Shown: one piece after another, positions 1,655-52,158 of the stretch
Numbering within the stretch: position 1 is the first letter of the stretch
Layout: the number at the start of each line of letters is the position of its first letter
Assembly (NCBI GenBank): GCA_001724265.1
Contig: MEDY01000360.1
Coordinates: 1 to 55,267, forward strand
Direction: 5' to 3'
From: Rhizaria sp. SCN 62-66
Lineage: Eukaryota
DNA length: 55,267 nt
Notes under the pieces: model-generated
Database searches by the model: none
Seen by the model: only the letters and a program-made list of their open reading frames with translations
What the model was told of the DNA's origin: nothing
Made by a program: the position numbers and the translations under genes

Positions 1655-2540
1655 TTACGATTGCGACTGTACGTTGCGGCTGTTGTTATCACTGGGGCCT
1701 CCAATGCTGCCGCCGCTGCCGCTGCCGCTACCGCTGCTACCGCCGCCACCGCGACGGCGGGCGCTTTGCACAGCGTAGCCGTCACTACTGCTCTGCGACT
1801 GGTGACCATGGCTGCTGCTGTGACTCGATTGCCCACGCGGGCGCTGCTGCTGCTGCTGCTGGTGGTGATTATGGTGCTGTTGGCGCGGTTGTGGATATTC
1901 GTGGCCGCGAGCAGAATCACGCGTGTGCGCGCTACTACCTCCGTGCGGCTGTTGACTGTTGCGAGGGTAGTGACCGTGAGCATGTCCGTGACCGTGAGCA
2001 GCAGCAGAGTGACCGTAAGCGCCCGCATCAGCAGGCACGTAGTAACGACCATGAACAGGAGCGTGACTGTGCGCAGCGTGACCGTGCGCAGCGTGAGCGC
2101 GAGTGTGACCGTGAGCAGCCGAATGACCGTGAGCCACAGAGTGACTGTGAGCAGCATAGTTGTGACCTTGCGCATGCGGCGAACACGCACCATGACTCTG
2201 CGTCATAGACAGAGGTACTGGCACTGGCACAGACACGGCACCGCCCGAGTGCGACGCCGGCGCGGCGGCAGTCTGCGACGCGGGGAGATACGCTGGCATG
2301 CGCCCGCCAGTCGCAGTGCCAGCGGCACCGGTCGGTCCGGCCACAGCCAAGACACCGGCACCGGCAGCGACAGGAGCAGGAGGGGCGGCGCCGACGGGGA
2401 CGAGCCCGTGGGGACCGTATCCGGGAGAGGGAGAAGAAACGGGGATGTAGGCAATCGTCGGGGCGATAGCATATGCCGGCTGCTGATGGCCGTCATAAAT
2501 TGAAGGATACGGGTAGCGGCTTGGGTACGCTCGGCCCCCG

Positions 2541-2573
<33 letters not shown>

Positions 2574-5500
2574 GTGTGGGTGTGTTGACGCACGTCGGGT
2601 CCGCTGCTGCAGCTAATGTAGCCGCGACTGGAGGCGTTATGGTGGCTGCTGCGGCCGCCACCGCCGCCGCCGCCGCCGCCACCGCCGCCGCGGCCGGCGT
2701 ATGGCCCGCCTGCGCTGGCGTTGCGCGCTGGGTCCTGCCCTGCTGCGTACGCGCCGTCTGATGTACCCGTAGCACTTGTGACGCCACCGACACCAGGAGG
2801 ATGCGCCGACGCGCCTCCGTAACCGCTAGCAGCACCACCAGCAACAGCGGCGGCCGCGGCAGCGGCGGCAGCAGAGTCAGGTGTCCAAGGCTGGTGTTGC
2901 TGTTGCTGCTGCACTTGCAACCACAGCAAATGCTGAGCGTGGTGGTGCGGCTGCATGTGCGCCTGCTGCTGCTGCTGCTGTTGTTGTTGCAAGTGTTGTT
3001 GGTGTGGTGGCGCCGGCGGCTGGTGCGACTGCTGGTGTTGATACGGCTGCAGCAGGGGCGGGATCGAGTGGGAACTGCTGGGACCAGGTGCTGCGGCCGG
3101 ATGACCGTAGCTGGGACCGCGACTGTAACCGCGCTGCCTGTGCCCGTGACCGTGAGCAGAGTGACCGTGAGCAGCAACGTGACCGTGGGCAGCGGCGTGA
3201 CCGTGGCCGTGACCATGCTGATTGTGACTGAGACTCGACGCCGGGCTCTGCGCCGGTGTTTGCGGATACGACCACTGAGCAGCAGCAGCGTCACCATACG
3301 AATATACACGAGGTTGCGACTGCGCAGCCCCTCCATATGCGTATGCATCCACATACGCCGCTGGGGGTGTGATGGACTTGGCAATCGCGCCTGCGCCGGC
3401 GGCAGCGCCAGCAGCTGTCGCGGTTGCAGGTGTAGCAACACTGGAAACAGCAGAATTACCAGTGTTCGTGGGTGATGTTGTGGGGACAACGCTGGAAAAC
3501 GCGTCGTGGCCGAGCCACCGTCTGTTGTCATGATGTTGCTGCGCTGTATACTGTGTTGCCTGCCCCGAAAGCTGCACGGATAAACTGAATTTACCGTGCT
3601 GCCGCTACTGCTGCTGCTGTTGTTGTTGCTGTTGCTGAGAGAACTTGTCGCTATACCGTTGTTCATGTCCATAGCCGTGACCGTGTCCGTGCCCGCGGCC
3701 TTGACCGTGTCCGTGCGTTTGACTGCGTGCAGAGCCGGGCCTTGCAGAGCCACCGCCGCGGACACGCGAGTAACCGCCGCTGCCACCACCGTGCCCGTGA
3801 CCGTGACCTTGACCGCAGTGACCGTGGCCGTGGTCGCCGTGTCTGGCGCTTCGCGCCTCCGCACGGCGCGACTCACTCTTGCTCTTACGCTGGACCAGAT
3901 AGCCGTACACACGCGCTTCCGCCTCGCCGCTGAGAGCGCGGAATGTCGCGATCAGAGGGGCGGGCTCGAGGGGCGCCGTTGCACTGCTACCGTCAGCCCT
4001 CGCTCTGGCACTTGCGCTCGCACTCGCGCTCGCACGGGCACTGGCAATAGCACTGGCACTGGCGCCCGCAGTAGGAGCAGAGGCGGCGTCAGCGTTGGCG
4101 CTGGCACTGCTGTTAGCGTCCGCGTTTGTTGCCGCCATGGCTTCGAGACTGAAGGTGGCGGCAACAGGGCTCGCGAGCGCGCTGTCTTTACGGCCGTCGC
4201 CGTCGCCGTCGCCGTCCTCGTGCGTTTCAAGATCAGTAAGCGTTGAAAACGTGTCGTCGCCGTCAGTGTGTTCGCTCTTCGCGCCGCGACCGTCACCGGC
4301 GCTCGCGTCGTCGCCCGCACTCTGCCCAGCGCCGCCGACGACAGCAGCGTCGCCGCCGCCACCGTCACCGCCGGCTCCGACGCTGTCACGTGACGAGTAC
4401 ATCGCAGCGGCACCGGCACTAGTGTTATCGCTCTTTTTGTCGCTCTCACCCGCGGCGGCCTTGGTGTGGCTGTCGCTGGGGCTGCTCTTGCTGCTGGCCT
4501 TGCTGTCGGCCTTGCTGCCGGCTTTATGCCCGCCGCCGCTGTTGTTGCTGCGGACAGCGGTGCGGTGCGTCGTGCGGACAAGCGCCGGGAGCGTGTTTAA
4601 GTGCGCGACGAGGTCTGACGCGGGCGGCGCACGCCGACCGTCGAGGATAACGTTCGCAAACAGGTTGCCGGGCTTGTAGCTGATAAGGCGCACGATTGGA
4701 CGCTGCTGCTGCTGCTGTTGTTGCGGCGGCGGCGGCGACAGCTGCGGTGACGGCGACGGCTGCGGGTGCTGCAGGTGTTGATGATGCAAGCCTTCGGTGG
4801 CAGCGGCTGGAGCCGCGAAAGCGGCGATGGGGCGCTCTGAAGCAGCTAGCGGGTGGCGCTGCTGTTCGGATTGGCGCTCGCTGGGTTGTTCGTCAGCAGT
4901 GCTGTTAGCGTTGCTGTTGACGTTGCTGCTGGTGGTGCTGTTGTTGTTCTCGTGCGCAGCTGTTGCGTCAGCTGCAGAGTCTCTGTCCGCCGCGGAAACA
5001 GCGGCACTTGCAGCAGCACTCGCAGAAGCAGCGGCGGCAGCAGCGGCAGCGGTCGCCGCGGCAGCGTTGGCAGCGACGACCGCTGCCTTGATGCAGACTG
5101 AGATGAGCCTACGCACAGTCCGCGCGTCGCCGCACACGTTGCTCACCTTCAGCAAGCAGCCGGGGACAAACCGCAGCGGCTCACCGTCACTAGCGGTGAT
5201 TTCGAAGGCGGCAGCGAGGCGGGCGTCGTGGGCCTCAGCGTTTGCGACGGCGTTATGGTCATTGTGGCTAGCGTCGCTGTAAACACCGAGGGCGCTGGGA
5301 ACGGAGTCTTCGCTCCCATGCGCGTGCGTGTGCGCCTCGGAAGCGGAGTCAGCGGCACTCTAAGACGCATCGGTGTCAGAGCTGTCAGGTGCGAGGCCGA
5401 GGCCGCTCAGCGCGGCGCTTTCGTAGAGCGCTGCAGGGTAGAGCGTCAGAGTGCGCTTTTCTGCGTTGGGAGGCGAAACGCGTGACACTGTTTGGTTGTC

Positions 5501-6178
5501 CCCCGTAACATCCGCGTCTTGCTCTGAAATCGCGGGTGCAGTAACTTCACTCCCTTGGAGGTTGGAAACCGCAGCAATGGCATCATCGGACGACACAAAG
5601 ACCAGCCACGCTGAGGGGTGTGGTAAAGTGTTATGAGTTGTTAGGACGGAGGCTGATTCAGCGCTGACCTAGTCAGCCGCGTGTACTGACTGTGAATAGT
5701 CAGTTGTGGAGCTGTTAGGCATGCTTTGCGCCACAATTGTAGTTGCGGTAGAGTCTTTTACGCTAGAAATCTGGTCCTGCGAGGCAAATACGATGTTTAC
5801 GAGAGAAAGCCCCTGGGTGTCAAAGAAGGAGCGAGCGTACTCAAATCGCTGCCACTCTGCGGGGAAACCCTACACAAGCACGGTGTGCGCAACAATATCG
5901 AGCTGCGAGGGAGCGTAAGGCACTGTGCGGAAGACGTGTAGGTTGTCTGCAGTGACAGCGATCAGCGAGGACGCATGTAGAGCGTCTGCAAGCTCCGGTG
6001 CGGAGTTGGTGATGTTGCGAATGCTGTCGTAGCTTAACAGTACCGACAGCGGGACAACACCGCATGACCCGGGCGTAAAAAGATTACGCAGCGAGGCCGA
6101 ACTTGCAATGCTAGCGTCGCAGAGCAAATTCTCAACCAGTGTGCGCAGTGTACGCTGCTGGTGGAGCAAGAGCGGCAT
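1655..6178 (-). CDS. La-related (LARP7/p65-like) RNA-binding protein, paralogue 1: divergent La motif + RRM1 + split xRRM + Q/H/G-rich tail; about 1507 aa if 4 in-frame TAG are read as sense
   Basis: ATG at 6178 in GCCACCATG context with an in-frame TGA just upstream. ORF-track pieces 5870-6178, 5360-5596, 3605-5155 and 1655-3577 share one frame, interrupted only by TAG at 5870, 5669, 5360 and 3605; ends TAA 1655. La-motif-like LVENLLCDASI..GVVPLSVLLSYDSIRNIT..LADALHASSLIAVTADNLHVFR; RRM1-like HTVLV*GFP..AWLVFVSSDDAIAAV; xRRM-like [49 protein letters not shown]. Confidence 0.8.
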
Positions 6179-8136
6179 GGTGGCTCAAGGAGTAACACTC
6201 ACGACGCTTGCACCGTCGATTTGCTGCCGAGATTGCGCTGAAAAAGAAGCATAAGAAGACAAAAGTACGGCGGAATGAATGAAATCGATATAACAAACAA
6301 AGAGCATGGGCATGGTTGCGCATTCAGAGACATTTAGCGTGACTGAGTGTGATGTTCCGGTGCGTGGTCTTGACACCCGCAGCCGACCCAACGGCTTTGT
6401 TGCCTAGACGAGCTGCATCGAGCTCGAATTTCGCAGGAACAAAATCGCGTATTTGAAATATAAGCAATCGTTGGGGTGTGTTTGTTGGCATAGACGTCGT
6501 TAATGCGTGCAGGGTGTTAAAACATGGCATGGTCTCGCTAATAAGACGGAAGAATGACACTTTTCCAGGCCATGCGCGAGCTGGGCATCCCCGTTTGAGC
6601 GTCGACGCATTGCAGCGCATACCGCCTCGTTAAAGGAGATAAAAGCGTAACAACAAGGGCTGGATGGAAAAATAGCATCTTTTCAACATGTTGATCTGAT
6701 TGTGATCACGTGTTGTGTCCCTATATTGCCACGTTTCTGGTTCTCGGCAACCCCCACCGACCCACGCTGCGCGACTTGTCACCGTCACTTTTTGGTGACA
6801 AATTGTGACGAACTTGCTTCGCGATATAGACGTTGTTTCAACTGGCGAAACAAATGCTTAAAATGTATCCAATAAGAACGATCATGAATTGAGTGTTTAT
6901 TGTACGTCTTCGTTGCCGATTGTTAGCTATGACCACAGTACATAATACATGTCAAAGTGTCCAATATATGTGTCAATGTCAAGACTGAAAGACAGACTGC
7001 ATTTGCACGAGGAGTTCCGTGTTTTTCCGTCGGCATTACTGAGCCAACTGCAAACACGCGCGCTGACTAAGTGGACGAGGGGATAAGTGGCAGTAACAAT
7101 GCGTTAGGTGAAGCAAAAAGTCAACAAGAAGTCTGGCGTGCTGCGACAGCTACGCAAAACGTCCAGTGACAGTGAAGAGGGGAAGTGACAAGACTAAAGG
7201 GTTAATGAAGGAGTGAATGAGCCTTCTGCAAGCAAACCATGAAACTAGGATATTTTGATATATGTGCGCGAACCAACAAGCGTTCGGTAGCAGCATCATA
7301 TCAACAATTGTGAGTGTGTAGCTTGTCTGGCAAAGGTTAAGGTCGTATGAGGATGTGGGAGAATCATCCACGAGTTGGGTGAATTAAAAAAAAAACAGCT
7401 TATTCAACGACAACAAAAAAGATAAAATTACACAGATCTGACAAGATACAAGGAGACCATTGAACAGGATAGACAAGAATAAGCAGATAGACTTGTAAAA
7501 TTGACCACAAGAGCATGGCGAATCTGAGCGCATGCAAGTGTGACTCAGAAGAAGAAAAAAAATTATGAGAAGTATGATACAGTGGCCCAGAGCAAAAGGC
7601 GAGCTAGTTTGCTTTGCAACAGCACGCGCAAACACACCCATGCAAGTTACGACAGTAGCAGGAGCAGCTGTGCAGTTTTCGCTTCTGGAAAGGAGGGGAG
7701 ACAGAATCAGTGCAGAAAGGGTCTAAAGTTTATGGCACAGTAATAATGAGACACGCGCGGGCTTCTCTTCACGATCGCTAAGAAGCCGCGGGAATCGAGA
7801 AGGAAGCAAAGGGAGCCAAGGGAGGCAAAGGGATTGAAGAACGGAAGCAACAGAGTTTAAAAAAAGCAGCTCACATGCGCTGCGTTACGAGAGTTGCTCA
7901 CTGCTTGCTACAAGTGCTGTTGTCATGGTCATGGTGAGCGTCACTGGTGAGCGTCACTGTAACTTCGGTCCCGTGTGAGACTGTGACTTCAATCCAGCGT
8001 GAAACTGCGATTGTGGCTGTGACACAGACTGCGTCCGAGAGCGATCTTGGGACTGAGACTGAGACTGAGTCTGCGGGCAAGTCTGCGGGAGTGGTTGCGA
8101 CGGGAACTGAGACTTGGTCCTGGCTGTGAAAGATTA

Positions 8137-11100
8137 TTATTGATGCGGGTAGTTAGGAGGTCCATGCTGTTGCAGCACATAAAGCTGTTGTTGATGCTAC
8201 AATTGCGGCTGCATATGCACAAAATGTTGCGGCACGTGCTGATGATGCACCTGGGGCACAGCTTGGGGCAGAGGGTGATATTGCTGGGAATGCGGCTGCT
8301 GCTGCTGCTGCTGTTGATACTGCTGGTGGTGGCTCTGGCGCTGATGCTGATGTGAATGCCCACGCTGCCGCGCCGCCCCTGTGTTGTGACTCTGGACCTG
8401 GCTCTGGCCGTGGCCGCGACTGCTGTTGCGGCCCAAGGGGCGCTGCCCGTGACCGTGCCCGTGACCGTGAGTAAGACCGTGACTGTGACTGCGCTGGTGT
8501 GCTCCACGGCCCTGCTTGGGCTGCTTTTGCTGCTGCATACGCTGAGGCTGGGGCTGAGGCTGGGGTTGAGGCTAAGGATGAAGCTGATGTTGCAGAGGCT
8601 GAGGCTGGGGCTGGGCCTGGTGCTGAGGCAACGGCTGCTGTGGCGGGGAAAGCTGCTGATGCTGCCTGCTTCCACTGGTACGGCGCTGCTGTGTATACGG
8701 CGACAGACCGCTGGGGACCCGGCTCAGATCCGACCGTAGCATCTGCGACGGCGACTGCAACAGTCGTGCTTCTGCCTGAGCCAGCGTCTGAGCCTGATCC
8801 TGGGGTTGAACCTAAGCCTGGGCCTGGGTCTGAGTTTGAGCCTGCGGCTGCGGCTGCTGAGGGTGAGTCTGAGAGTGAATATGGAGCAAAGTCGGCGACG
8901 GCGCCCGCACCGGCAATGCAGACGACTGTGAATCCGCGTCCACGTGCTCCTCATCATGCGCGTCCGGCGAGTACTCATCAGGTAACTCGTGGTGTGACTC
9001 GCCGTGAGGCGGGTACGCATGGTGTGGACACGTGTGGGCGTTATAATGCTGCGGATATCCAGCTTGCTGCAGCGACTGTGACAGAGGCGGCTGCGGTGGC
9101 AGAGCAAGCTCCAGTGACGTGCCTTCCGACAACGCCAACAATGGCGTCTGTGAAGGCACATACTGGTAATGATACAGCTTCTGCTGCTGATGCTAATGCT
9201 GATGCTGGTGGTGTTGCTGAAAATGCTGCTAGTGTTGTTGCGAGTTCGCGTGCGATTGAGAGTGCGACCGCGCGCGACGCAGTCCGGAACGACTACTCTG
9301 CTGTTGGTGCTGCCGTTGATGCTGACCCTGGTGATGATGCTGTTGCTGATACGGTTGCATGTGATGTGACGCCCCAGGCGACCAATGCTGCGGGTGCTGT
9401 TGATGCTGATGTACGGAAGGTCCCGATGCGACGACAGAATACAGCACAGGCTGCTGCTGCAACGGCAGCAAAGTCTGAGCATGCGTCGTCTCATTTCCAG
9501 CACTTCCAACAGTCGCCGCAGCGGATGCGGGGGCCGCGGCAGCAGCACCGGCAGCAGAGGCAGCGGCGGCAGAGCCGAGGCTTGCAGAGGAATGCACATA
9601 CACCGTAGGCGGCTGCGCGGCGTGAGCGTAGACATACGTCGGACCGTTCGCGTACTCGCGACCGTGAGCAACTGCATGACCGTGGGGGTGGCCGTGAGCA
9701 GCGGAGTGACCGTGGGCAACGTAGTGACCGTGGGCAGGCGGTGCAGCGTGTGCGTACGGCGACAAGCTCTGCTCATGCTGCTGCTGCTGCTGTTGAGTCT
9801 GGGGAGGCTGCTGAGATTGCTGAAGCTGTTGAGGTTGTGGTGCATGGTTATAGTCGTGCGGATGCGTGTGTGCGGGTGGAGGAGTCTGCAGCAAGATATA
9901 CGCTTGCAGTGGCTGCAGCGGCGGTTGCTGTTGTTGCTGCAACTGCGCCTGTGCCTGAGCTTGAGCCTGAACCCGTGCCTGGGCCTGTGACAGCAGCGGA
10001 GGAAGCTGAGGAGTCGTTGGCGACGGCGAGGCTTGTTGCTGATGTTGTTGTTGCGGCTGCTGGTGCTGATGACGGTAATGCTGTGCAAGGGCGTGGTCAA
10101 CATGGTATTGCTCAGTCGGCTGCAGGTAATAATGCGCCGGCGCCTGAGTGTGATTCGCTTGGGTCTGCGCGTGGGCCTGAGCCTGCACCTGAGCCTGATT
10201 AGCCTGCACCTGCACATGATGGGCCTGAGTCTGCGCATGTTGAGCCTGAGCCTGTGCGTGTGCGTGTGCGTGGGCTTGAGCCTGGTATACCTGCGCCTGC
10301 GCCTGAACCTGCGCATGTGCACGTGCCTGCGCCTGAGCCAGGGCCTGGGCTTGAGCTTGGGCCGGGGCTCGATTGTGTGCGTGAGCCTGTGCTTGCAAGT
10401 CAGCAGACGAAAGCGGGGGGCCAAAGTGACCGTGAGCGTGCGCAATATCCTGACTGTGGCTGTCGGCGTGATCATGGTGCCCGTAACTGGTGGGACCACC
10501 GTGACCGTGAGCAGAGTGACTGTGGGCGGAGTGACCGTGAGCAGCGTAGCTGTGACCATGGCTGAAGCCGAGACCGAGACTGCGTGCGCGTGCATGTGCA
10601 GGCACGGGGCGTTCACGACCACCACGGAAGCTCTGTTGCTTTTGACGCTGCTGCTGCTGTTGCTGTTGCTGTCGCTGCTGTTGGTGGTGCGCAAAAGAGC
10701 GGTTCTGCTTGTGCTACGTTTGATGCAGAAGCTTTAGCTGCGGGTCAGTAGAGGCCACAGGAGTTAGCGCATGTTGTTGTTGCTGTTGCTTAGACTTCTG
10801 CGTTCGCTTTTGCTGATGCTGCTGTAGCTGTTGTTGCTGCGTCTCAATCTGCAGTCTTAACTCATACTGCTCGTGTCGCTGCTGCTTGTGCAGCTTTTGC
10901 TGTTCAACACACTGCAACATCAACGAATGCAGTTGAGCACGCATCATCGACTCGGTGGCATCGTCAGGCGTACCAGAGTCGTGAGCCAGCTGCTGCTGTT
11001 GGTGTTGGTCTTGCTTTTGCTCTTGCGATTGCTTCTAGTCGAGCTCGAGCGTGTGACCTGCCGCAACAGCACTCGACATCAAGTTCACAGCTGTACCCGT

Positions 11101-14100: not shown

Positions 14101-14931
14101 GCTAAAGTAACCGGGAAGCAGTGCAGAGTCGCTCACACTCGCGGATATGTTGCGGTGGTCTGATTTTAGAAGAAGAGCTAAGTCCGGGCAACGTGTCCCC
14201 TCCCCGCTGTTCAGACCTTTATAACTCGCCTTAATAGCGCTGCTTGCGGTTGAAATTGCATCAAAATCTGCAACGGGGTCAGAAATTAGCATTACCGCAC
14301 GCGCCGCGTCGGAAACAGACGCGAAAACGAGCCAAACGTGGTTTTCTTGTCCGGCGATTTGGGGCTCCGACGCGAGAGTGGGCTCCGGCTCTCCAGCTAA
14401 GGCGCCTGTGGCGTCCTCCCCAGCCCGCGCTTCACAAACGCATTCAACCGGAGAACTAACGGCAGCGCCAGTCGCGCCAGCGTTCGCTGTATCCCCGCGC
14501 AGCGCGCGGTCGGTTGTGGCGGCGGCGCGGGCGCGGGCGAGGTTTGTGTTGACGAGGGCTAAGCCGCGGGCACTGAAGAATCTGTGTGCTTCGCCGAATC
14601 GCCACTTCGCAGGCCAACGCCGTGCTAAAACCGTGTGCGCAGCGAGCGCGGGTGGCGGCAGGAGCGAGAAGGGGAGCCGGCGCGTAACGCTGGCGCCGTC
14701 GGGAGCGAGGTTGAGCTGGGTTGAAGCGCGCAGCGCGCGTGCGAGGGCGATAGGGCAGTTGGAGACGGTCAGCAGTGGAGGGAACTGCAGGAGTCGTGCT
14801 AGCGGGATGACACCGGTGGCTGGGAGCGTGAAAAGCGATGAAAGGGTAGGAGAGCTAGTGATGCTTGCGTCGCACAGGAAAGACTAGGCGTAGGCGCAGA
14901 GGGCGTGCTCCTCGGAAGCGGAGAGCGACAT
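8137..14931 (-). CDS. La-related (LARP7/p65-like) RNA-binding protein, paralogue 2; about 2264 aa if 8 in-frame TAG are read as sense
   Basis: One continuous frame from ATG 14931 (alternative in-frame ATG at 15126) to TAA-TAA at 8137/8134, with TAG at 14884, 11035, 10714, 9229, 9193, 8812, 8572 and 8197. Collinear blocks shared with paralogue 1: [116 protein letters not shown]. Confidence 0.8.
11428..11574. repeat. Coding minisatellite, 7 x 21 bp (CGCAGTGGCCGGCGCTACKGY), encoding VAPATA(T/A) on the minus strand
   Basis: Seven head-to-tail near-identical 21-mers with no spacers, inside La paralogue 2 just after the xRRM helix. Confidence 0.95.
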
Positions 14932-16259: not shown

Positions 16260-18003
16260 TCAGACGATCTTCGCGTAGCACTCCATGAGCCTCTCCACCA
16301 ACTCATCCTTCTTCCCACTGACCTTGAGTGCATACAACTGCAAAAACGCCTTGAGCTCCGCGACCGTGCGCTTACTCAGTGTCCCCGCCGCCGCCGAAGC
16401 CTTAAACTCCTCGATCATCTGAGCATTATCGACCGGCCCGGCCTCCGCGGCAGCCTCTGCACGGCGCTTGGCCGCAGCTGATATCTTGGGTGGGATCGGG
16501 CCGAGTGGAGCACCCGCGGCTGCCTCGACGGCGGCGACAAACCTCGCGGCGGGCTCGGCGGCCTTGCGCTCAGCCTCAGCGGGCATGGTTAATACCTCGC
16601 GCTGATCCAACGGCGCCGGCTCGCTCAACGCGACCGCTTGGACGATCGCATAGTGGCGCTGGAGAGCCGGGTTTCCGGCACGAGTAACACCAACACGGCC
16701 ATCTGAGTCCCCCCGGAGCTCGATAGCACGGATAAGGTCCTTGGCGGCGGCGATGGCGTCGGCGGGGGCCGGGATGGGCCGGTCGAGCCGCAGTTCGCGG
16801 ACGTCGTCAGCGAAAGGGAGATACACCATCACCATGCCGGGGGGCTGGACGAGCATGCGCGATCCACCCGCCCCCGGGGCGGTACTATGGGCGGCGGAGG
16901 CGGACGAGACGGACGCAGCCAGCGAGCCCCCCGTCGGAGCCTGCGACTGCAGCTGCGGCGCGGAGGCTGCAAAGGCGGAGGCGGAGGCGGAGTAGAGGGC
17001 TTGCGAGGCCAGTAGATGGGAGTCGCGTGGCGCAGTGGCAGGCAGCGCGTACGAGCTGACGCTGCCGCGGTCGTCGCGCACCCTGAGAGCGGCCAAGGGG
17101 GGCTCTCCGGCAAAGCGCTCAGGCTGGGGGAAGAGCGCAACCAGCCTGGGCGCTGCCTGCGCCTTGGGGACCAGACGGCAGATCATCACGACGCCGCGCT
17201 CCGCCATTTTGGTCAGCAGGGCGTTAAACGCGACGGTGGAGCGGGGGTACTCCCTCTCGCACGGGTAGAGAAACGTCGGGCCGCGGACGTTCATGGAGAC
17301 TGGCACCATCGCGGCAGGCTTGAAACCAAGCACGGTCAAACCGGCGCGGGCGGAACAGGCAAAGGTCTTGACGGCCTTGATGTCGTCGTCCGAGAAGAAG
17401 ACTTTCTCGCGCAGAGCGTAGGGGAAATACTTGCGGATTTGCATCTCGCTCAGCACCTGCCCCGTTGTTTTGCATACGGAAAGCGCCTTGGCGTGGACCT
17501 CGGCCCCGGTGGCGGAGTCCAGCCGGCGCGCGCTCTCCGGCTTCAGGGGCCGGGCCAGGACAAAAACGTTGACGCCCATCACGAGCCCTGTGTTCACTGC
17601 GTCCCCGCCCGCATCGGCGCTCGCACCGCTGCTGCTCCCCGAGCCATTGCGCGCGGTGTGCTCGCCGAAGTGGATCGGGAGGGTGGTCAACACACGCTTT
17701 TTGACGATTTTCGACCGGAACATTTCCTCAAGCTCGCGCAGAGACCCGGCAGCCAGGGCCTCGTCGGCCAGGGATGGGTCTTCAAGCGCCGCAATGTAGA
17801 ACTTCCCGGCGTCGAAGGTGCGGGCGGTGGCTGCGAGGGCCGCGGCGGCGGCTGCGACGGCGGCGGCCGAGGAGGAGGAGGCCGCGGCGGCCACAGCGGC
17901 GCCCGCGGGGCCCTCGAGCTTGACGCCGCCGGCGGTCAGCAGGGCCATGTATTGCGCTGCTGTAACGGCGCCGTCGCTGGCGGACTGGGACTGAGACTGC
18001 ATC

Positions 18004-23358: not shown

Positions 23359-26300
23359 TTACCGCTGGTCAAAGCGGAGGCGCGCGGTGGCGTAGAAGCC
23401 GATGATCCAGAGCACAAGCATGCAAAGCGTGGCCCAGCCCAGCGACTCCCAGTAGTAGCCAAAGCTGAAGCCAAGGTAGTCCATGACATACTGCGCGATG
23501 GGGATGAACTTGGTGCCCGTGCCATCAGCGATCTCGATGAGAGGCGTGCATTCAGGCAGAGGAGTGCACCACTTGAACTGCGGCATCGCGAGCGCCTCGG
23601 TCAAGTGCGAGATGGGCAGCATGCGGAAGAGCCAGACGTAGCCGCGCGGGATCTGCGGGTAAGGAATCGCAATACCGGCGAAGGTGAACGCGAAAGAGAA
23701 GAAGAGACCCTGGATGACGTTGGCGGCGGGCGCGTTGGGGGAGATGGACGCGGCCGTGGTAGCGACGGAGGAGAAGAGCAGGCAGAAGACGTAGACGGCG
23801 AAGAAGTACTTGAAGAAAGCCGAGGCGTCGTTGAGCAGCCCCATCATGAAGTACATCGGGATCTGGAGGATGAGCGAGCCGGGGATGCACCACAAAATGT
23901 CGCAGAGCAGCGTCGCGATAGCCCACAGCGTCGGCCAGTACATACCGGAGGACGTCTCGCGGTAGAACACCGCGCGGTCGCTGATCTTGCCGGGCAGCGA
24001 CGACGACGAGTGCGTGACGGAGCCGAACATGGCGCCGACGACGACGGCGGCGATGAGCGACGTGGCAGCCGACTGCGTGGTGACCTCGAGCTGGAAATAG
24101 ATGCATCCGAACAGGATCGACAAGATCGTGAGCACCATGAAGCGCGTCATGAGCATCGGCGGGTTACGCCAGTTGCCGCGCATGGCGCGCTTAATCACCT
24201 CCGCGGCCTGCGCGAGCAGCGATGGCGCCTTGTAGTCGGGGGCCGTGGTCAGCGCGGTGGGCAGCGCGGCCGAGGCCTGCGAAACGCGGGAGATCGAGTC
24301 GCGGCGCTTGACGCCGGACGCGCCGGAGACGACGGACTGGTTCGCAAACGACGCGCCGGACGCCTCGGAAGCGTTGTCGTCGTTGTGGTGACCGTGGCCG
24401 CCGACGTCGATCTTGATCGGGTCGACGATCAGGCCGTTGGGGCCGGCGGAAAGCGCGGAGTTGACGGGGACAAGGACGTCGGGCGCGGCGGCAGGCGGCA
24501 GTGCCTGCAGCTCAATCGCACCATCCTCGCCAGCGCCAGCGCCAGAGTGACCATCGCCAGCGGGGGCGGCCTGCTCGGAGAGGGCCTCGATCTTGCGAAT
24601 CTTGCTCATCGCGGCGGAGCGCACGCGAGAGTTAGTGTAGTAGTTCATGAAGCGCTCGACGATCACCGCGGTGGGCTCGGCATCGGCCTTAGCGTCGGAG
24701 ACACCGACACCGAGCTCCTCGAGCATCCACGAGGCCGGGTTGTAGCGCGGAGGGATGGGCTTAACCTTGGGGATCGCGGACAGGTAGCGGACAAAGCGAC
24801 GTGAACGCTCGCCGAGGTCGCCGAAGTACATCTGGTAGCCACCGGAGGCGAGAAGCACGAGACGGTCGAAGAGGTAGAAGAGCTCGGCGGACGGCTGGTG
24901 GATGGTGCAGATGACGGCGCGGCCGGAGCGCGCGATACGGCGCACGACGCGCATGACGGTCTGCGCGGCGCGGGAGTCGAGGCCGGTGGTGGGCTCGTCG
25001 AGGAAGAGCACGGCTGGGTTGGCGACGAGCTCGCAGCCGATGTTGACACGCTTGAGCTGCGAGGGGGAGAGACCGGGGATCTGCTTGGAGCCGATGAGCC
25101 GGTTGGCGATGGTGCTGAGGTCGAGGATCTCGAGAACTTCGTCGACGATGCGGTCCTTGACGTCGACGGGGACGTCGGCGGGCAGACGGAGGTAGGCGGC
25201 GAAGCACAGGGTCTCACGAACGGTGTCGGTGGAGAGCAAAGAGTCGAACTGCTCGACGTAGCCGGTGGTCTTGGCGATGTCGTACTTGGTGGCGGTGCGA
25301 CCGTTGAGCATGATCTTGCCCTCGATGACACCCATGTTCTTGCGGCCAGCGAGCACGTCTAGCAGAGTAGTCTTGCCGGCACCGGAGGCACCCATGAGCG
25401 CAGTCAACCTGAAGTGGCACGCAAAGTGAGAACAAACGGAAATATATATCGGGATAGTGAGCGATTTGAATCGTAAAATTAAGACACAAATGTAAAATCT
25501 TCGTTGAAGCATGAAAGAATAAGAACGTACTTGCCGGGCTCGGCGTAGCCGTTGACGCCGCGGAGGAGCGGGCGGTCGACCATCGTGTTGGTGCCATCAG
25601 TGGCCTTGACCTGGACGGTGTAGCGGACGTCGGAGAAGGTGAGCCAAGTGGGCGTGAACGCCACAGCCTCGCGGAGAGTCTGGAGCGTGTTGGCGTTCGA
25701 GTCGCCGCGGACGAGCGAGCTGTCAGAGACCGAGGACGGGACGCGGCCGAGCGCGTCAGCGGCGGCGTCCTCGCCCATGCCGGCGGGCACGGGGGAGCCG
25801 AGTCCGGGGTCGTCGAGGTGGGCCTCGTCGTCGGCGAGGATCTCCTTGTCAGTGTCGTTGTCGAGCATCTCGGGCTCGTCGTCGAAGCGCGTGGTGCCCA
25901 TCGAAGCCTCAAAGTTAGGCCGGTACAGAAGGAGCGAGTGCGCGGCGAGGCAGAGGCACGCGAAGCCGAAGAGGTAGATGGCACCGTAGCCAATCCACTC
26001 TTTGCCAATCTTCATGTCGACCTGGTTGAGGAAGAGGTGGCCGAGGGGGATGCCGGAGTCGGTGATCTCGCTGTAGCGCGACGAGAGGAACTCGTTGTTG
26101 GCGAGCGCGCGGACGGACCAGGAGAAGGGCGAAATCCACATCATCCAGCGCATCCACACGGGGAGGTTGGACAGGGTGACGAAGAGACCACCGAACATGA
26201 TGAAGATACCAGTACTGGGGCCCGCAATCGCGTGGGCGGAGGGCTCGTCGCGGGCAATGGCCGAAAGCATGCGGAACCAAATGGACATGAGGAAGCACGT

Positions 26301-37300: not shown

Positions 37301-37632
37301 TGAACAGCGGCTTGACTTTAAGCGGCGGCCTGACTTCCGACCACCACAACTACGCCGCGTTGCCGCATTCGCAACAGCTGGGACCGCAGCAAATGGCCCA
37401 GCTGCAGATGCAGATGCAGCAAATGCAGCTCACTCCGCCCAACAACAACAACAGCAACAACAACAACGGGAACGTTGGTGCGGGGCCGCTGTTGCAGCAG
37501 GTTCCTGGGGCCATGTCGCTGCATCCCAACGCACACACTACCGTTGGCGGCGGCGGGAGCAGCAGCAGTCTGGCGCAGGTCGTCTCCGGCAACGGCGCGC
37601 CGTACGTAAGCGCCAGCGCCAGCGCCACCCCT

Positions 37633-37666
<34 letters not shown>

Positions 37667-37941
37667 TGATGATGCAGCAACAACAGCAGCAACAGCAACA
37701 GCAGCAGATGATGATGCTGGCGCAGCAGCAGCAGCAGCAACAGCAACAGCAGATGCTCCAGCGCCAGCAGCAGCTGCAGCAGCAACAGCAGCAGCAGCAG
37801 TGGGCTCTCCAGCAACAACAGCAGCAGCAGCAACAGCAAGGCGTCGGCTATGGTCACGGCCACGGCCACGGCCACGGCCACAGCGGCGGCGGCCACGGGC
37901 TCGGTCACGGCGTGCCCGTGAGCTACGGCAAGGGCTACTGA
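34320..37941 (+). CDS. CDKL-family (CDKL5/LF5-like) Ser/Thr kinase with poly-Q C-terminal tail, 2 exons 34320-34356 and 34589-37941, about 1129 aa
   Basis: Splicing GTTCGT..TTTAG (34357-34588, 232 nt) gives [83 protein letters not shown] and LERRYLGKL are CDKL hallmarks. Stop TGA. Confidence 0.93.
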
Positions 37942-38809: not shown

Positions 38810-38858
38810 CGTGGGACGACTCGGGTAATCTAACCAGACATCTTCAAAAACTAAAAAA

Positions 38859-41255
38859 ATGGCGTCTACTGCTGCTACCACCACGACCACTCTGACTGCT
38901 GCCAACCTGAACTCCGGTTCTCTGTGTACGTCTCTACCCTGGACTCTCCAATCAACCTCATCCTCACTGTACTTTTGCCTCTGCGGACGGCCCCCGAGCG
39001 CTTTTTGCGTAATCGCGCTCGTTAAATCAGTAGATCCTGCGTAGATCTTTGCTTGCAGTGTGTTTTCAATCTGTATCATGGGAAATGACGCGCTGTGTAA
39101 AGGCCTCCATGAGACTTTAGCGCGCCTTCTTCTACCGTCATTGGCCAATTCCGCGCTCACTTTGCTTTCCCTCTGTTCTCGCCTCTGCTACCCCTCTTTC
39201 GCCCCTATTTTTCTACCGAACTCGTAACAAACAACTCTATTTTGTTATCCTTGTCGTAATTGTTGTTCTATCGTTCCCATCTTTCCCTGACTCACCCTTT
39301 CCCAAACCAAAACCCACAACCACAACTCAAACTGCACACGTAACTCTTCGCGTGTCTCCCCACGCTCCCCACGACCCCCATTTTCGCTCTTCCCTCGTGC
39401 GCACTGCTCAGACGTCGGCGACCTCGCCCCCGAGGTTGATGAGAACGACTTGAACGAGAAGTTCAGCGCGGCGGGCCAGATCGCGACGATCCGCCTGTGC
39501 CGCGACTCGACCACGCGCCGCTCTCTGGGCTACGCCTACGTCAACTACCTCGACCCCGTGTCGGCGCAGAAGGCGTTCGACACGCTCAACTTCTCTGAGA
39601 TCAAGGGCAAGCAGTGCCGCGTGTGCTGGGTGAACCGCGATTCGTCGCAGCGCCGCTCCGGCCTGGGCAACCTCCACGTTTCGGGCCTCAGCGACAGCGT
39701 CGACAACCTCACCCTCTACACGGCTTTCTCCAAGTTCGGCACCGTCCTCTCGTCCAAGATCTGCTACAACCGCGACACGCACAAGCCGCTCGGCTACGCG
39801 TTCGTCCAGTTCGAGTCGGATGAGATCGCGCGCGACGTGGTCGAGAACAAGTCCCCCGTCACCGTCGGCGACTCCAAGGCCGTCGTGGCCATGTACAAGC
39901 AGCGCAAGGACCGCCAGGCGCAGCGCTTCACCAACATCTACGTGAAGAACCTCCCCGGCTCCTGGACCAAGGAGAAGCTCGACGAGACTTTCTCCCAGTT
40001 CGGCAAGATCACCTCCTCCGTGCTTTACAACGCGCGCCCCTCGCCTGCCGCCGCCGCCGCCGCCACCGCCGAGGGCGCTGAGGCTGCTTCCCCCGCGCCT
40101 GAGGCCCTCTCTTACGGTTTCGTGTCTTTCGAGACGAACGAGCAGGCGCAGCACGCGATCGAGCGCGCCAACGAGCTCGACGTCGAGGGCCGCCGCGTCT
40201 ACGCCGCCGCCGCCATCTCCCGCGCCGAACGCGAGCGCTCCAAGCGCGACAACCGCAGTCTGCGCGCGCAGCAGATCAACAGCAAGTCGCTCCACTGCAA
40301 CCTCTACGTCAAGTTCCTGCCCGAGACGGTCACCGATGACAAGGTCCGCGAGGTCTTCGCGCGCTTCGGCACCATCACCTCGCTCCGCGTCAACCGCACC
40401 GCGGACAACGGCCCGTGCACGGGCGTGGCGTTCGTCTGCTACAACGCGCCCGAGGAGGCCAACAAGGCCATCGCGGCGCTGAACCAGTCCCTCGAGTTCG
40501 GCGGCGCGGCCCGTCTCTACGTGGCCCTCCACCAGCCTAAGACCCAGCGCCTCGCCCACGGCGGCGCGCACGGCGGCGTCCACGGCGGCCACTTCCGCGG
40601 CGGCCTGCCGCCCCACGCCGCGGGCGGCCGCTTCCCGGGCGGCGGCTACGGCGGTTACCCCCAGCAGGGCGGCTACTATGGCGCGCCCTACGGCATGTAC
40701 CCGGCGATGGGCGGCGCGCGCGGCGGCTTCCGCGGCGGCTACGCGCAGGGTGCGGCCTACGGCATGCACCCGGGGCAGATGATGATGCAGCAGCAGGGCG
40801 GCTACGCGCGTGGCCCGCGCGGCGTCCAGGGCGGCGTCCGCGGCGCGGGCATGGGCGGCATGGGCCCCGCAGGCGCGCGCGTGGGCGCCGGGCCCCGCGG
40901 CCCGCGCATGGGCGGCGCGTACGGGCAGCAGATGGGCGGCCAGCAGGGCCAGATGCAGCGCCAGCGCCGCCCGCAGCAGCAGCAGCAGCAGCAGCAGCAG
41001 GGCGGTGTCGTCGCCGGCGGTTTCGACCTCGCTGCGTTCAACAGCATGCCCGCTGACCAGCGCCGCAACTACCTCGGCGAGCTCGTGTACCCGCTCGTGC
41101 AGGCCCTCGACGAGCAGCACGCGCCCAAGATCACCGGTATGATCATCGAGATGGACCACAATGAGGTCATCAAGCTGCTCCACGCGCCCGCCGAGCTTCA
41201 GGACAAGGTCGCCGAGGCGCGCCAGGTCCTGCAGGAGGCGGGCACCACCGCGTAA
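38859..41255 (+). CDS. PABP: Cytoplasmic poly(A)-binding protein (4 RRM + RGG/Q linker + MLLE/PABC), 2 exons 38859-38925 and 39412-41255, about 636 aa
   Basis: Intron GTACGT..CTCAG 38926-39411 (486 nt) restores NSGSLY|VGDLAPEV. RRM1 CRDSTTRRSLGYAYVNY, RRM2 GNLHVSGL..LGYAFVQF, RRM3 FTNIYVKNL..YGFVSF, RRM4 CNLYVKFL..GVAFVCY, PABC LGELVYPLV..APKITGMIIEMD. Stop TAA. Confidence 0.96.
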
Positions 41256-41904: not shown

Positions 41905-41949
41905 TTTCTCTTTCTCTTTCTCTCTCTCTCTCTCTCTGCTTTCTCTCTC
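41905..41949 (+). repeat. Imperfect (CT)n microsatellite downstream of PABP
   Basis: tttctctttctctttctctctctctctctctctgctttctctctc. Confidence 0.8.
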
Positions 41950-46764: not shown

Positions 46765-47379
46765 GGTGTGCGAATGGGAACGCGGGAGGCGCTGCGGGAG
46801 TCGGGAGACAAGAGGAGCAGAGCAGGGGCGCAGTGGAGGTAGGGAAGGAGACCTATAGAGCGGAGACGGGACAGATTATCAGAAAATAATATATGAGAAT
46901 GTGATTAAATGTATGTATAACTTTATCCGCTAGTCCTGCGTCTAATGATGAAGGGGAGGCGCACAGCTGGCACGTTAATAAGGAACGATGATGAGAGGCT
47001 CCTCGAAGCAAAGTAAGAAACCACCGCTTGGTTGGTCAGATAGACTGGGTGGACTGAGTAATCCTTTTAGTCAAGAGAGCGAGCCTCATAGCCGTTGAAG
47101 AGAAGCTCATATGAGAGTGGTAATATCTCTATAATCTCATCGTCATTTTGATTATGTGTATGTTATCGCGTTTTTTTTAGTATTTTATTTACTGGAACTT
47201 GCATTAATTTTCCTTAAAACAGTGATTGCCGTGATCTAAATCACTTGAAGATCACACCCGCGTTTCACTCTGTCAATACTTCCTCCACTCATTCCCTTTC
47301 CAGGCTCTCACCTCTCCTTCGCAAATTGAGACAACCAGAACCGTGCTAGCGACATTGCACGAGCGCATACACGTCATTT

Positions 47380-50300
47380 ATGCGTGTGGAGTTAGCCGCG
47401 ACAGCAGCGCCGGGGCTCGGCGCGCCGCCCCGCAGTGCCGGCTCTGACCTAGTCCCATCAACATCAGTCCCTGCTACTGCCCCTGCTACTGCTCCTGCTA
47501 CTTTCCCTGCAACTGCTGCTAACGCTGACGCCATTGCTGCTGCAGTTGCTACCGCGGTCGCCGCGCTTAAGGCGGAGGCGCAGGCAAAGCTGGATCGGTT
47601 GGCGGCGCGCTGCAACGCCGAGCTAGCGGCTCAGCGCTCGCGTCACGCCGCCGCCCTCTTGGCCGCCGCGGAATCGATGGAAACTGCGCTGGCCGCGGCC
47701 AACGAACGCGCCGCCGCTGCAGAAGCACGCGCCGCGCAGGCGGAGGCCCGGGCTGCCGCCGCCGAGGCCAAGACGTCTGCTGCCGAGGCCAGGTCTGCGC
47801 GGGCTGAGACTAAGGCTGTGAAGGCGGAGGCTGAGGCGACGCGGGCGGGGAAGCGCGCGCGCGAGGCTGCCGCGGGCGCGGACGAGGTGCAGAGCGCGGC
47901 CAGCGGGCTAGCTGCAGCGCTGCTGCGGGCGCGCGGGGAGCTGGAGCTGGCGCGCACGGCTGCCAGTGACACGGACAAAGCCGACACGGTTGACAAGGCT
48001 GACAAGGCTGGCAAGGCGTGGACAAACGCGAATGCAGCGGGCTCAGGCGCACACGCTAATCCCGCTGATGCCACTGATGTGAGAGCGAATGTTTGCAACA
48101 AGTGTCAATGCAAGAGCGACGAGAGCGTGGTCACCGCGAGCACGAGCAGTGTCTCTCCTTCTTCTGCTGCTGCTGCTGCTGCTGCGCCAGTGTCAGCGCT
48201 AGTGTCAGCGCCAGTGTCGGCGCCCTTCTTTAGCCCGTTTTCGCCCATCTCGCCCGACGTCACTCAAAGTCAAGCCGCTGCGTATGAAACTCATGCCGCA
48301 TACGAAAGTGAAGCCTCGCTGGAGCCACACTTAGCAACACCATTGCATGCGTTCGCGACCGCCTCGAATGCGAAGATCACCGCAAGCATTCGAAGTCACA
48401 AGAGCAACGTCACGATCGCTCGCACGGGCGCTGAGACGGAGGCTTCGCTAGCAGCTCTAGCTGCGGCTGCGGGAGCGACTACAGCCGGCGCAGACAACCG
48501 CAACGGCAACGGCAACGGCAACGGCGGTGTGAGCGACCACCTGCAGCGCTCACAGCGTGACGCAATGACAACGCCCGTGCCCAGTCACAACAAGAAGCAA
48601 CAACAGCAACAGCAGCAGCTACAGTTCCAGCAGCTGCAACGCGAGCGCATGAGTCATCGCCGTGATAGACCCGAGTATTCCAAGAACTACGACTGCGGCG
48701 GCAGCGGCAGCGGCAGCAGCAGCGGCAGCAACAGTGACGCTGACGCTGACGCTGACGCTGACGCTGATGATGATGCTGACACTGAAACTGATCCTAACTG
48801 CAGTGACCGGGAGTGCAGGGACAGCGAGTGTGTCAATGAACGTGGCCGCCGCCGCCGTCGCGACAACCACAAGCACAGCTGCCACCGCAGTCGTGCGCAC
48901 AACCATCACGGCCACGGTCACGATCGCGGTCACGGCCACGGTCCCGGTTGCAGTCGCAGGCGAGATCCCACTGACCGCAAGTCAAACCGTGACATTAACT
49001 GTAAACGTAACAACGCTACGCGTGACAGCGGTGCTTCTGTCGCAGCGCCCGGGTCGGGAAACACGGTCTCATCCGTCTCATCAAGCATTTCAGTATCGTC
49101 GGGCTTTTTAGGCCCATCAAGTCTATCTGGCGCGTCGGTGCGCTGCGCCCGCGCCCGCTGCCCCCGCCGCGGCTGCGGCTGCGCCAGCAACGGCCACTGC
49201 CACGGTCACGGTCACGGTCACTGCAGCCGCCACGGCAACGTCGAGAGCAATGTCAGCAGCAGCAACACAGACGGCAGCGCAAGGGGCCTCAGTGTCGCGG
49301 GTGGGGCTCATGGCTATGTTAACGGCGGCGTCAACGGCGGCGCCTTTATGAGCACGCGCGCGCTTCTCGCCGCTCAGGCCGCCGCCGCGCGCGCCGCCCT
49401 GGCCGACGCAGAGGCCGCCGCGGCAGCCGCAGAGACTGATGCTGTGGCCTAGGCCGTAGCCAAAGCTAAGCCGCAGGCAACTGCAGCCGGATCACAGATG
49501 CACCCGTCAGCAGCCGCAGCAGCAGCAGCAGCGGCAGCGGCAGCGGCTGCGGCAGTGGCCAAGGAGGATGCAGCAAAGGCAAGCGCTGAGGCAGTCAAGC
49601 ATGCGCTGGCGCAGATCCTTGCAGCCGCTCAAAGTCAGGCCGCGTCTGGTACGGGCTTTGGTCTGGGCCACATCAGCAACAACAACAACTGCAGTAGCCA
49701 TAAGGGCGCTCTCAACGCTGATACTGCTGCAACTGCTAGCTCAGTGAAGCGCAGCACGAACAACAACAATATCGACTACAATATCGACAACAACAACAGC
49801 AGCACCAGCGCAGGTAATGCAACTGCGGCTGCTTCGGCGGCTGACTGTGGCGGCGGCGGCCACTACGTGAGTCCCCCCTCATCACCGTCGCTTTCACCGG
49901 CGGCCTCGCCCACCGCGAAGTTGCCCGCCGCGGCCTCGCCCGCCGCAAACCAGCCCCCGGCACCCGGCCCCGGCCCCGCTGCCGCTGCCGCTGCTGCCGC
50001 TGCCGATGCCGATGCTGATGCCGTCGCTGCCACCGGAAGATTCGCGGTGGGCTCGGACGCTGGCGCAGGTACTTACACAGGTACTTACACAGGTACTCAC
50101 ACCGCCGCCGCCGACCCCAGTGCGCGGACCTTAGACGTGCGCGACATGCGCTTGTAGCCCTTAGACGTGCACCGCCCCGACGCACCCCATTCAGACACAA
50201 CGGCTAAGGGGCACTTAGACGCGTCTAAGAGGTACTTAGACCCCGTCGCGCTGGCGCTGGGCCTGATTTCGGCGCGCGCAACCACGCCCGCGCCCGCGCC

Positions 50301-51681
50301 CGCGCCCGCGCTTGCTGCTCTGTCGGGGTCGGTGCCAGTGCCGGCGCTGATGCGCCGCGGCAGCACGGGCTCCGCCTTTGCCACGACTCAGCTTAAGCCT
50401 GAGACCGCCGCGCACGCTGCGACTGCTGCTGCCGCTGCTGCTGCTGCTGCCGCCGCTGCCGCTGCCGCTGCTCCTGCGACAGAGAATGCGGCAGAGACTG
50501 CGGCCGCGACGGCGCACTCCGCAGCTGCGAGAAGCAGAGACGGCGATGACGCCGCAAAAGATCGCATTGAGAACGCCGGCCTCACGCTGCAAGACGCACT
50601 GCATGCGGCGCACATCCACGATCAAAGCGACAATACGCCAGCAGCAGATGCAACAACAGCAGCAGCAGCAGCACCACCACCAGCAGCAGCAGCGCAGCAC
50701 CACCAGCATGCACGCGCTCGCAGCAGCGATCTCGGCCGCAGTCTAAGCGCCCGCAGCTCCAGCGCCAGCGGTGTAAGGGCCAGCGGTGTAAGGACCGCCT
50801 CCCCGGCTCCTGCGGCTGCTGCTGCTGCTGCTCACCCGCACGCGCGCGCTGCGTTCGGCCGCACACTGCCCCTGCCACTGCCTCTGCCTCTGCCGCGCGG
50901 CCACGGCCCGCGATCGCAGCCGCACGCGCATGCGAGGTCGCCGTCGCCGTCGATGTTTGCGCGCACGTACACGCCCTCGCAGAGCGCCTATGCGGCAGCG
51001 CACGGCTTTGCCGCGGCCAACACGGCGCAGCGCGGCGCCCGCACCCCGAGTCCCAGCCCCGGCCCCGGCGGCGCCCGCACCCCGAGCCCCAGCCCTGGGC
51101 CCGGCGGCGGCGACGGCGGCGGCGTTGTGGCTCTGAGGGAGGGCGCGCGGGCGCGGGCTGAGCGCGCGGCGGCGGTGTCCGTGGCGCGCGCCGGCTCAGG
51201 CTCCCCGCGTCCTTACTATGGGCCCCTGCCGCTCTACGCGCCGCGGCCCGGCGCTGCAGCCGTGACCGACGCTCGGCCACGGTCACGGTCGCGGTCGCGA
51301 GCGCAGTCGGGGACACAGTCACAACCACTATCGCGGACTGGCACGCCGGGGGTTCGGACTCCCGCCCCGTACGGCAGCGCCATGGCCAACACTCTCAACA
51401 ACGCTGCTACTGGCGCTGTTGCTACTGCTGCAGTTGGCGCGAGTGCGGGCGCAAGTGCGAGTGCTGCCGGTCGCTGCGACGCCGCTCCTCTAGTCGCGCC
51501 ACACTGGCCTCAGCAACAGCTGCCACAGTTGCAGCCGCAGCTGCTGCAGCAGGCGCAACAGCCGGTGTTCAAGGTGAACGCGGTCACGCGCGACGCCAGC
51601 GGCGGCTTCGGCTCGCCGCCGCCGCTGCCGCCTGCGCACGCACACGCGCGTGGACACGCGGCTGCGCGCGTTGCAAAACAA

Positions 51682-51718
<37 letters not shown>

Positions 51719-52158
51719 TTGTTCAACGGCGTCAGATGCAGAGTTTGGCGCATAGTCAGTCCTGCGACACTGAGCTTCAACCGCAAGACCAAGATCAACA
51801 GCAACAGCAGCAGCAACAGCAGCAGCCGAAGTCAGAGCAGCAGCAAGAGCAAGGTTATGATGTACTGGTGAGTCGCAGTGTCATTGACGACTGGGACGCG
51901 AGGCGGCTTGACTTCGGCGACAGCGCCCCTGTGCCGTCAGTGCCAGCTTTAGCCATACTTGCAGTGCAGCCAGCTTTAGCAGCGACACAGAACGTGGCAA
52001 ATGACGCTCATCACGCCGCCGTTAACGGTGTTACTCTCGCTGGAGCTGACTCAGGAGCGGGCATTGTGCAGCACATTGCAGCCGCTCTGGTCGCTGGCGA
52101 CGACGCCAGCGACTACGGGTTTGAGATTGTGGACGAAAACAGCGCTGCTACGTACTGA
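47380..52158 (+). CDS. Hypothetical protein with N-terminal coiled coil and low-complexity body; about 1592 aa if 2 in-frame TAG are read as sense
   Basis: ORF pieces 47380-49452, 49498-50157 and 50167-52158 are the same frame, separated only by TAG at 49450 and 50155, with coding-like sequence continuing immediately (ETDAVA*AVAKAKPQ; RDMRL*PLDVHRPD). Ends TGA, then AT-rich 3' flank. Confidence 0.78.

Follow-up and report, generated by a model that had tools for sequence, protein, structure and literature searches.

UAG as a probable sense codon, UAA and UGA remaining stops, in a GC-rich, intron-bearing eukaryote of wastewater reactors

The contig MEDY01000360.1 (assembly GCA_001724265.1, deposited as Rhizaria sp. 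SCN 62-66), analysed here over positions 1 to 55,267 and referred to as the window, raises the question of how the organism that it comes from reads the codon UAG. Three of its genes, namely two tandem members of a family with a predicted La module (P0001 and P0002) and one gene for an alanine-rich low-complexity protein (P0003), are each interrupted by TAG and by no other stop codon. The interpretation developed here is that UAG is a sense codon and that UAA and UGA are stops, to which we assign a probability of roughly 0.8 on the basis of the 55-kb window and one further contig of 2.5 kb. It is favoured because the interruptions are TAG only, because they recur in independent DNA runs and in an RNA contig, because some of them lie in a folded La module, because protein sequence is conserved downstream of them, and because a second member of the family shows the same behaviour.

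Once TAG is read through, open frames extend over 1655-6184 (minus strand, four TAGs), 8137-15183 (minus strand, eight) and 47218-52158 (plus strand, three). The TAG at 47347 precedes the likely start codon of the last of these, so that 14 sites remain. P0001 (1655..6178, minus strand) runs from ATG 6176-6178 to TAA 1655-1657 with four in-frame TAGs, and its La-module part (La motif, RRM1 and RRM2-like blocks) is followed by a long tail rich in Q, H and G. Its tandem paralog P0002 (8137..14931, minus strand), with an ATG placed by homology at 14929-14931 and a TAA at 8137-8139, has eight TAGs and a very long Q-rich tail, and P0003 (47380..52158, plus strand), with a likely ATG at 47380 and a TGA at 52156-52158, has two TAGs and matches no Pfam family. 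Together, these 5,429 codons (about 16 kb) contain 14 in-frame TAGs, no TAA, no TGA and no frameshift. In the remaining two frames of this DNA, the per-frame means are 10 TAA and 21.5 TGA for P0001, 16.5 and 31 for P0002, and 9.5 and 30 for P0003, which gives a summed expectation of about 36 TAA and 82 TGA. TAG itself is depleted in frame by a factor of about two to five (4 in frame against 8 off frame in P0001, 8 against 17 in P0002 and 2 against 11 in P0003). These positions and counts reproduce those of an earlier sequence-only reading of the same DNA, which gave each site by the low coordinate of its codon.

Under the standard code, the three genes, together with a related gene on the 2.5-kb contig (L001), would have to be pseudogenes in decay, or relics under barely any constraint, in which every nonsense mutation happened to produce TAG. 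Most of the TAGs can be derived from CAG by a simple C-to-T change, as such decay would produce, and random nonsense mutation of the existing codons would yield TAG in 57-69% of cases. Even so, the probability that all 14 would be TAG is 4e-4 to 6e-3, and that of 16 out of 16, with the two L001 sites added, is 1e-4 to 3e-3. Decay also sits poorly with the absence of any frameshift from 16 kb of microsatellite-rich DNA and with the strain indels in P0002 attributed to this organism, which number two, are 9 and 18 nucleotides long and both preserve the frame.

Gene ends in the window tell against decay as well. Fourteen can be read, which is a small sample, and they comprise eight TAA, six TGA and no TAG. 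The sequence-only reading had likewise found TAA and TGA as the only terminators and had counted eight TAA, although its totals of 12 ends and four TGA did not survive the recount. Homology up to the C-terminus backs five of these stops: the TAA of alpha-tubulin (82..84, plus strand, after ...GDGEY), the TGA of Ku70 (16260..16262, minus strand, six residues past the SAP domain), the TAA of a full-size ABCG transporter (23359..23361, minus strand, after ...RFDQR), the TAA of PABP (41253..41255, plus strand, past the MLLE domain) and the TAA of a fatty-acid desaturase. The stops of alpha-tubulin, the transporter and Ku70, taken earlier as genuine from the sequence, are thereby upheld. No in-frame TAA or TGA was found in any gene frame examined in the window.

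Assembly or sequencing errors, unrecognised in-frame introns, or editing of the mRNA to CAG could also place apparent TAGs in these frames, and the contig is metagenome-derived and repeat-rich. Contigs of four other runs were compared over 1600-15300, which holds the 12 TAG sites of P0001 and P0002. X3, a DNA run of another study, spans eight of the 12, X4, from a strain with 26 listed differences, spans nine, and X7 spans two. Jointly these three cover ten sites, including those in the divergent strain, and no run has another letter at a TAG; the sites at 3605 and 8572 are without listed independent contig cover. In P0001, the TAGs at 5870..5872 (codon 103, at the end of RRM1 strand beta-1, HTVLVXGFP, where X marks the TAG here and below) and 5669..5671 (codon 170, HAADXVSAES) are unchanged in X3 and X4, that at 5360..5362 (codon 273, DTDASXSAADS) is unchanged in an X3 contig, and that at 3605..3607 (codon 858, after ten CAG/CAA codons) lies outside the listed contig pieces of the other runs. 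In P0002, also on the minus strand, X3 and X4 both retain 14884..14886 (codon 16, in La motif helix 1, YAXSFLCDAS) and 8197..8199 (QPQLXHQQQ, 20 codons ahead of the TAA), X4 and X7 retain 11035..11037 (where an xQ array would have Q), and all three retain 10714..10716 (LLHQTXHKQN). X3 and X4 retain the TAGs at 9229..9231 (SQQHXQHFQQ) and 9193..9195 (HQHQHXHQQQ), as does a poly(A) RNA contig; that at 8812..8814 (Q phase of a period-2 array) is unchanged in an X4 contig, and that at 8572..8574 (likewise in Q phase, within a (PQ)n array) lies outside the listed contig pieces of the other runs. The two sites of P0003, on the plus strand, are 49450..49452 (ETDAVAXAVAKAK) and 50155..50157 (RDMRLXPLDVH). 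The TAGs are not assembly errors, and the different base that the sequence-only reading had named as a threat to its case appears in the contigs at none of the ten covered sites.

The fourth run, X6, is a poly(A) metatranscriptome. Its contig at 9029-9285 carries two of the P0002 TAGs (9195 and 9231) unedited and unspliced, although it is an assembled contig for which DNA carry-over is possible. X6 depth is zero in four of five intergenic bins across 5713-7997 and 1.2 in the fifth, against 5.9-7.2 in the DNA runs there, and RNA contigs cover both La genes. Editing of TAG was rejected at the two sites with RNA cover. Introns do occur in this genome. Three spliceosomal introns were verified in the window, all on the minus strand (53511-53676, 26550-26708 and 25410-25531); they are about 120-165 nucleotides long, have a GC (guanine plus cytosine) content of 0.30-0.36 within GC-rich genes, and each begin with the 5' splice site GTACGT, contain a branch motif resembling CTCAC/CTAAC and end in YAG. 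The reading frame shifts across the verified introns in the ABCG and desaturase genes, and none of the three lies inside a TAG-bearing gene. In-frame introns were rejected as the source of the TAGs, since GC at the TAG sites is 0.48-0.68, no 80-nucleotide window falls below 0.40, and GTACGT is missing from the three genes. Splicing or editing, which the sequence-only reading had likewise flagged as fatal to it, was thus seen neither at the two RNA-covered sites, at contig level, nor in the form of intron signals in the three genes. Given also that TAGs stand at the Q phase of codon-periodic arrays, an artefact of any of these kinds is very improbable.

P0001 and P0002 have an N-terminal domain of 130 residues in common (40% identity), along with three additional blocks. 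An AlphaFold model of P0001 residues 1-215 has a predicted local distance difference test score (pLDDT) of 84.5, and its top fold matches are human La N-terminal domains, consisting of La motif and RRM1 (2voo_A, E 4.8e-8), together with LARP7. By sequence, the best PDB match of the La motif is a weak one to the La protein 1s29 (E 0.0011), presumably from Trypanosoma brucei and taken as a lead only, and the Pfam La gathering score is missed (16.4 bits against a cut-off of 37.1). The La signature reads ENLLCD in P0001 and XSFLCD in P0002, the consensus in 40 relatives being the aromatic EFYFSD. As judged from the model, both proteins are predicted to carry a La-module fold, with the La motif followed by RRM1. 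P0002 keeps six of seven near-invariant La-module residues and the seventh is the TAG itself, which is not what a decaying gene would lead one to expect; the next in-frame ATG after this TAG at codon 16 is codon 214. Downstream of the TAGs, the RRM2-like blocks of P0001 and P0002 are identical at 71 of 101 residues. Because 37 of these 71 shared residues are encoded by different codons, the conservation is at the level of the protein. The family appears lineage-specific. Its proteins, here of 1,507 and 2,264 residues, combine a La module with a very large tail rich in Q, H and A, and in the window they occur as a tandem duplication.

A further member was found on L001 (2,554 bp, 68% GC), the only match among metagenome contigs, which has one open frame of 850 codons with two TAGs and no TAA or TGA and comes from the same organism or a relative. 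Family members were also sought by profile search among 1.84 billion representative proteins. The database protein P0131 is P0001 ending exactly before its first TAG, and P0133 is the N-terminal part of the L001 product, ending exactly before the first TAG there. The family members P0132, P0133 and P0134 are reported with the same longest contig of 39,308 bp and may sit on one contig.

If UAG is sense, the residue that it encodes becomes the next question, and two lines of evidence bear on it. The first is the local context. With L001 included, the four codons to each side of the TAG contain one or more Gln codons at ten of the 16 sites and three or more at seven, and most TAGs in such contexts stand at the Gln phase of an array. 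This suggests that most TAGs descend from CAG. However, the other codons in those arrays can hardly mutate to TAG, and under little constraint the same pattern is expected whatever TAG means; as read from the sequence, the array context would reflect CAG ancestry rather than the meaning of the codon. Codons found at the Q-phase positions (four TAG, six GAG or GAA and ten AAG or AAA among 382) have no power to separate Gln from Glu.

The second line of evidence comes from an alignment of 41 La modules with 151 folded columns, of which three are dominated by Glu. Both alignable TAGs fall on two of these three. At the column of P0002 codon 16, 40 homologs have 37 E, two D and one A; at that of P0001 codon 103, 37 homologs have 23 E, six K, three R and five single residues, and the four closest relatives have R, C, S and R. 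Gln occurs in neither column, so that UAG is aligned with a conserved Gln at none of the two alignable positions. Across the alignment, the Glu-dominated columns hold two of 182 homolog Gln residues against 80 of 361 homolog Glu residues, and the P0002 TAG at codon 16 is paralogous to GAG in P0001. The sequence-only reading had proposed that UAG encodes Gln with UAA and UGA as stops; its sense UAG fares well here, but its assignment to Gln is not borne out by the two alignable columns. On balance, Gln is given about an even chance, Glu a somewhat smaller one, and some other residue is rather unlikely. A bolder and less likely reading is that UAG encodes Glu with UAA and UGA still stops, at a low-usage stage of reassignment tolerated only in the weakly constrained genes of an uncultured, GC-rich wastewater-reactor eukaryote.

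Several observations weigh against a sense UAG altogether. TAG is very unevenly used, making up 14 of 466 Gln-type codons in the three genes and none of about 485 in the other genes of the window (P ~5e-5). It is absent from the other approximately 8,400 codons of the window, Ku70, ABCG, a CDK-like kinase, PABP, the desaturase and five further open reading frames (ORFs) included, and the kinase has 191 Gln codons in long polyglutamine (polyQ) runs without a single TAG. The sequence-only reading had not remarked on this absence. No conserved housekeeping gene within the window carries one. Between P0002 and strain X4, five synonymous and 18 non-synonymous differences were counted, against a neutral expectation of 26% synonymous; the ratio of non-synonymous to synonymous polymorphism (pN/pS) of P0002 is about 1, and these differences do not demonstrate recent purifying selection on the gene. 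The window contains no tRNA gene and no Rfam match over its 55 kb, and hence no tRNA(CUA). The RNA evidence is limited to metatranscriptome contigs at two sites with possible DNA carry-over, the two lines of evidence on the amino acid appear to conflict (Q arrays against Glu columns), and all of the evidence is confined to the 55 kb and the one 2.5-kb contig. No further contigs of the organism were found among genome contigs with PABP and the La alignment as queries, nor among viral contigs with the La alignment, PABP and ABCG.

The differences between P0002 and X4 have a pattern of their own. Across the frame at 8137-15183 (minus strand), 13 of 23 fall at codon position 1, with many Ala/Thr/Ser/Pro exchanges and three changes of ACG to GCG, possibly as a result of CpG at codon junctions or of very weak constraint. 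An alternative reading frame for P0002 was considered and rejected: the La and RRM blocks and the freedom from TAA and TGA are found only in the P0002 frame, and the bias is marginal.

The uneven use of TAG and the weak constraint keep two rivals of a sense UAG alive. The first is the decay of genes under the standard code introduced above, which gains from the pN/pS of about 1 in P0002 and from the confinement of TAG to three low-complexity genes. The sequence-only reading had regarded genes that are untranscribed and have a dN/dS (the rate ratio of non-synonymous to synonymous substitution) near 1 as a sign of error; RNA contigs cover both La genes, which, DNA carry-over aside, speaks against the former for these two, but pN/pS in P0002 does lie near 1. 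Set against the TAG-only interruptions, with a probability between 1e-4 and 6e-3 under decay, the intact frames, the retained La-module residues, the RNA contigs and the lack of genes ending in TAG, decay is quite unlikely. In the second rival, UAG is formally still a stop without a dedicated tRNA, and weak termination with readthrough by near-cognate tRNAs is tolerated only in dispensable low-complexity genes. TAG is indeed rare and limited to weakly constrained genes, where its share of Gln-type codons is about 3%, well under the approximately 30% of CAA in the same genes. However, a gene with eight such sites would yield hardly any complete protein unless readthrough at each of them were very efficient, and leaky termination would have to account for the absence of TAG as terminator from all 14 gene ends. 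The base following the TAG is C at seven of the 14 sites, G at four, A at two and T at one, which offers no readthrough context and agrees with the earlier statement that no such motif is present. Leaky termination is accordingly judged unlikely, too.

Under the favoured reading, in which UAG is sense, TAG is a rare and probably costly codon, tolerated in this window only in weakly constrained low-complexity genes. In the trypanosomatid Blastocrithidia, reassigned codons are reported to be spread non-randomly and to be avoided where expression is high (PMC12153298). Mechanistically, decoding would most likely depend on a CUA-anticodon tRNA and on poor recognition of UAG by eRF1. The majority of the TAGs would have arisen by C-to-T change from CAG in glutamine arrays, and at least one may derive from GAG at a near-invariant glutamate of the La motif. 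A recent or inefficient reassignment would fit the restriction of TAG to three weakly constrained genes and its avoidance in better-conserved ones.

The organism itself can be characterised in part from the window. GC content is 55-64%, with AT-rich spacers, and the genes are of eukaryotic nuclear type, including the 3' end of alpha-tubulin, Ku70 with its SAP domain, the full-size ABCG, the CDK-like kinase, PABP and the fatty-acid desaturase. The stretch recurs in contigs from seven studies, in runs from bioreactors, wastewater and activated sludge, and the organism is therefore considered uncultured. In a search of 5.8 billion proteins, the best non-self relative of PABP had 45% identity and none exceeded it, and by this measure the lineage appears to have no close sequenced relative. 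The PABP gene (39291-41255, plus strand) shows extreme codon bias, with a GC content at third codon positions (GC3) of 0.92 and 46 CAG against one CAA. The ABCG/PDR-type transporter (23359-28777, minus strand) is full-size, that is, of two halves, and is interrupted by two introns. The kinase frame at 34195-34570 (plus strand) has no Met upstream of the catalytic domain, so the first exon must be placed further upstream behind another intron and the gene model is incomplete. Homopolymer and dipeptide tracts (polyQ, polyN, polyG and HG repeats) occur in nearly all proteins of the window, even in the kinase and Ku70, examples being 34195-37941, 43809-45449 and 45427-46875. The ORF at 45427-46875 (minus strand) begins with MGCGSS, which looks like an N-myristoylation signal.

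A code with UAG as sense and UAA and UGA as stops corresponds to NCBI translation table 15 when UAG encodes Gln. Nuclear codes that split UAG from UAA are described in only a handful of lineages, going by the accounts in PMC11687900 and PMC5304391. The closest parallel is the fornicate Iotanema spirale, described with UAG as Gln and UAA and UGA as stops and with 204 in-frame UAGs in 126 scrutinised genes, Gln being found at 22 of 28 hyperconserved UAG positions (PMC5304391). The present case is similar in its in-frame UAGs and in its terminators, which are only UAA and UGA with UAA the commoner. It differs in that the genes with TAG number three of about 14 and include no housekeeping gene, in that the two alignable sites point to Glu, and in that the genome is GC-rich with a PABP lacking any relative above 45% identity. 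Among ciliates, reassignment of UAG alone is reported to Gln in Protocruzia tuzeti and two phyllopharyngean lineages and to Leu in one phyllopharyngean (PMC11687900). These share the decoupling of UAG from UAA, so far as they are described there. The present window differs: its GC content is 55-64%, both strands of the 55-kb contig carry genes, and its introns measure about 120-165 nucleotides. We take such a window to be unlike a ciliate macronuclear genome.

Glutamate as the meaning of UAG also has precedents in other settings. In Blastocrithidia, UAR codons are described as Glu and UGA as Trp, with UAA serving also as stop (PMC12153298); on that description, a possible UAG-Glu assignment and a non-random distribution of the reassigned codons, avoided in some genes, are common to both systems, whereas the genes here have no in-frame UAA or UGA and the genome is rich in GC, not in AT. 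An uncultured oligohymenophorean ciliate is listed with UAG as Glu and UAA as Lys (PMC11687900), the rhizarian exLh with UAG as Leu and in-frame UAGs at conserved Leu positions (PMC5304391), and Scotinosphaera with UAG as Ser (PMC11687900, PMC5304391). The oligohymenophorean and exLh resemble the present case, within those accounts, in that the meaning of UAG is separate from that of UAA. However, UAA is also a sense codon in the former, unlike here, and the conserved-Leu placement of UAG reported for exLh is not seen in these genes. In literature listings and abstracts, no report came to light of a nuclear code in which UAG is Glu and UAA a stop, nor of such a code in any eukaryote from wastewater.

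Codes that split UAG from UAA bear on how eRF1 can distinguish between the two codons. A further independent case in a GC-rich, intron-bearing genome would lie outside the AT-rich organisms usually linked to the capture of stop codons, and, with TAG so unevenly used, it would capture reassignment at an early or costly stage. Were UAG to encode Glu, the code variant itself would be new. Standard gene callers cut genes of this family at TAG, as in P0131 and P0133, and since database proteins end exactly at TAG, the metagenomic annotation of this lineage would be systematically wrong.

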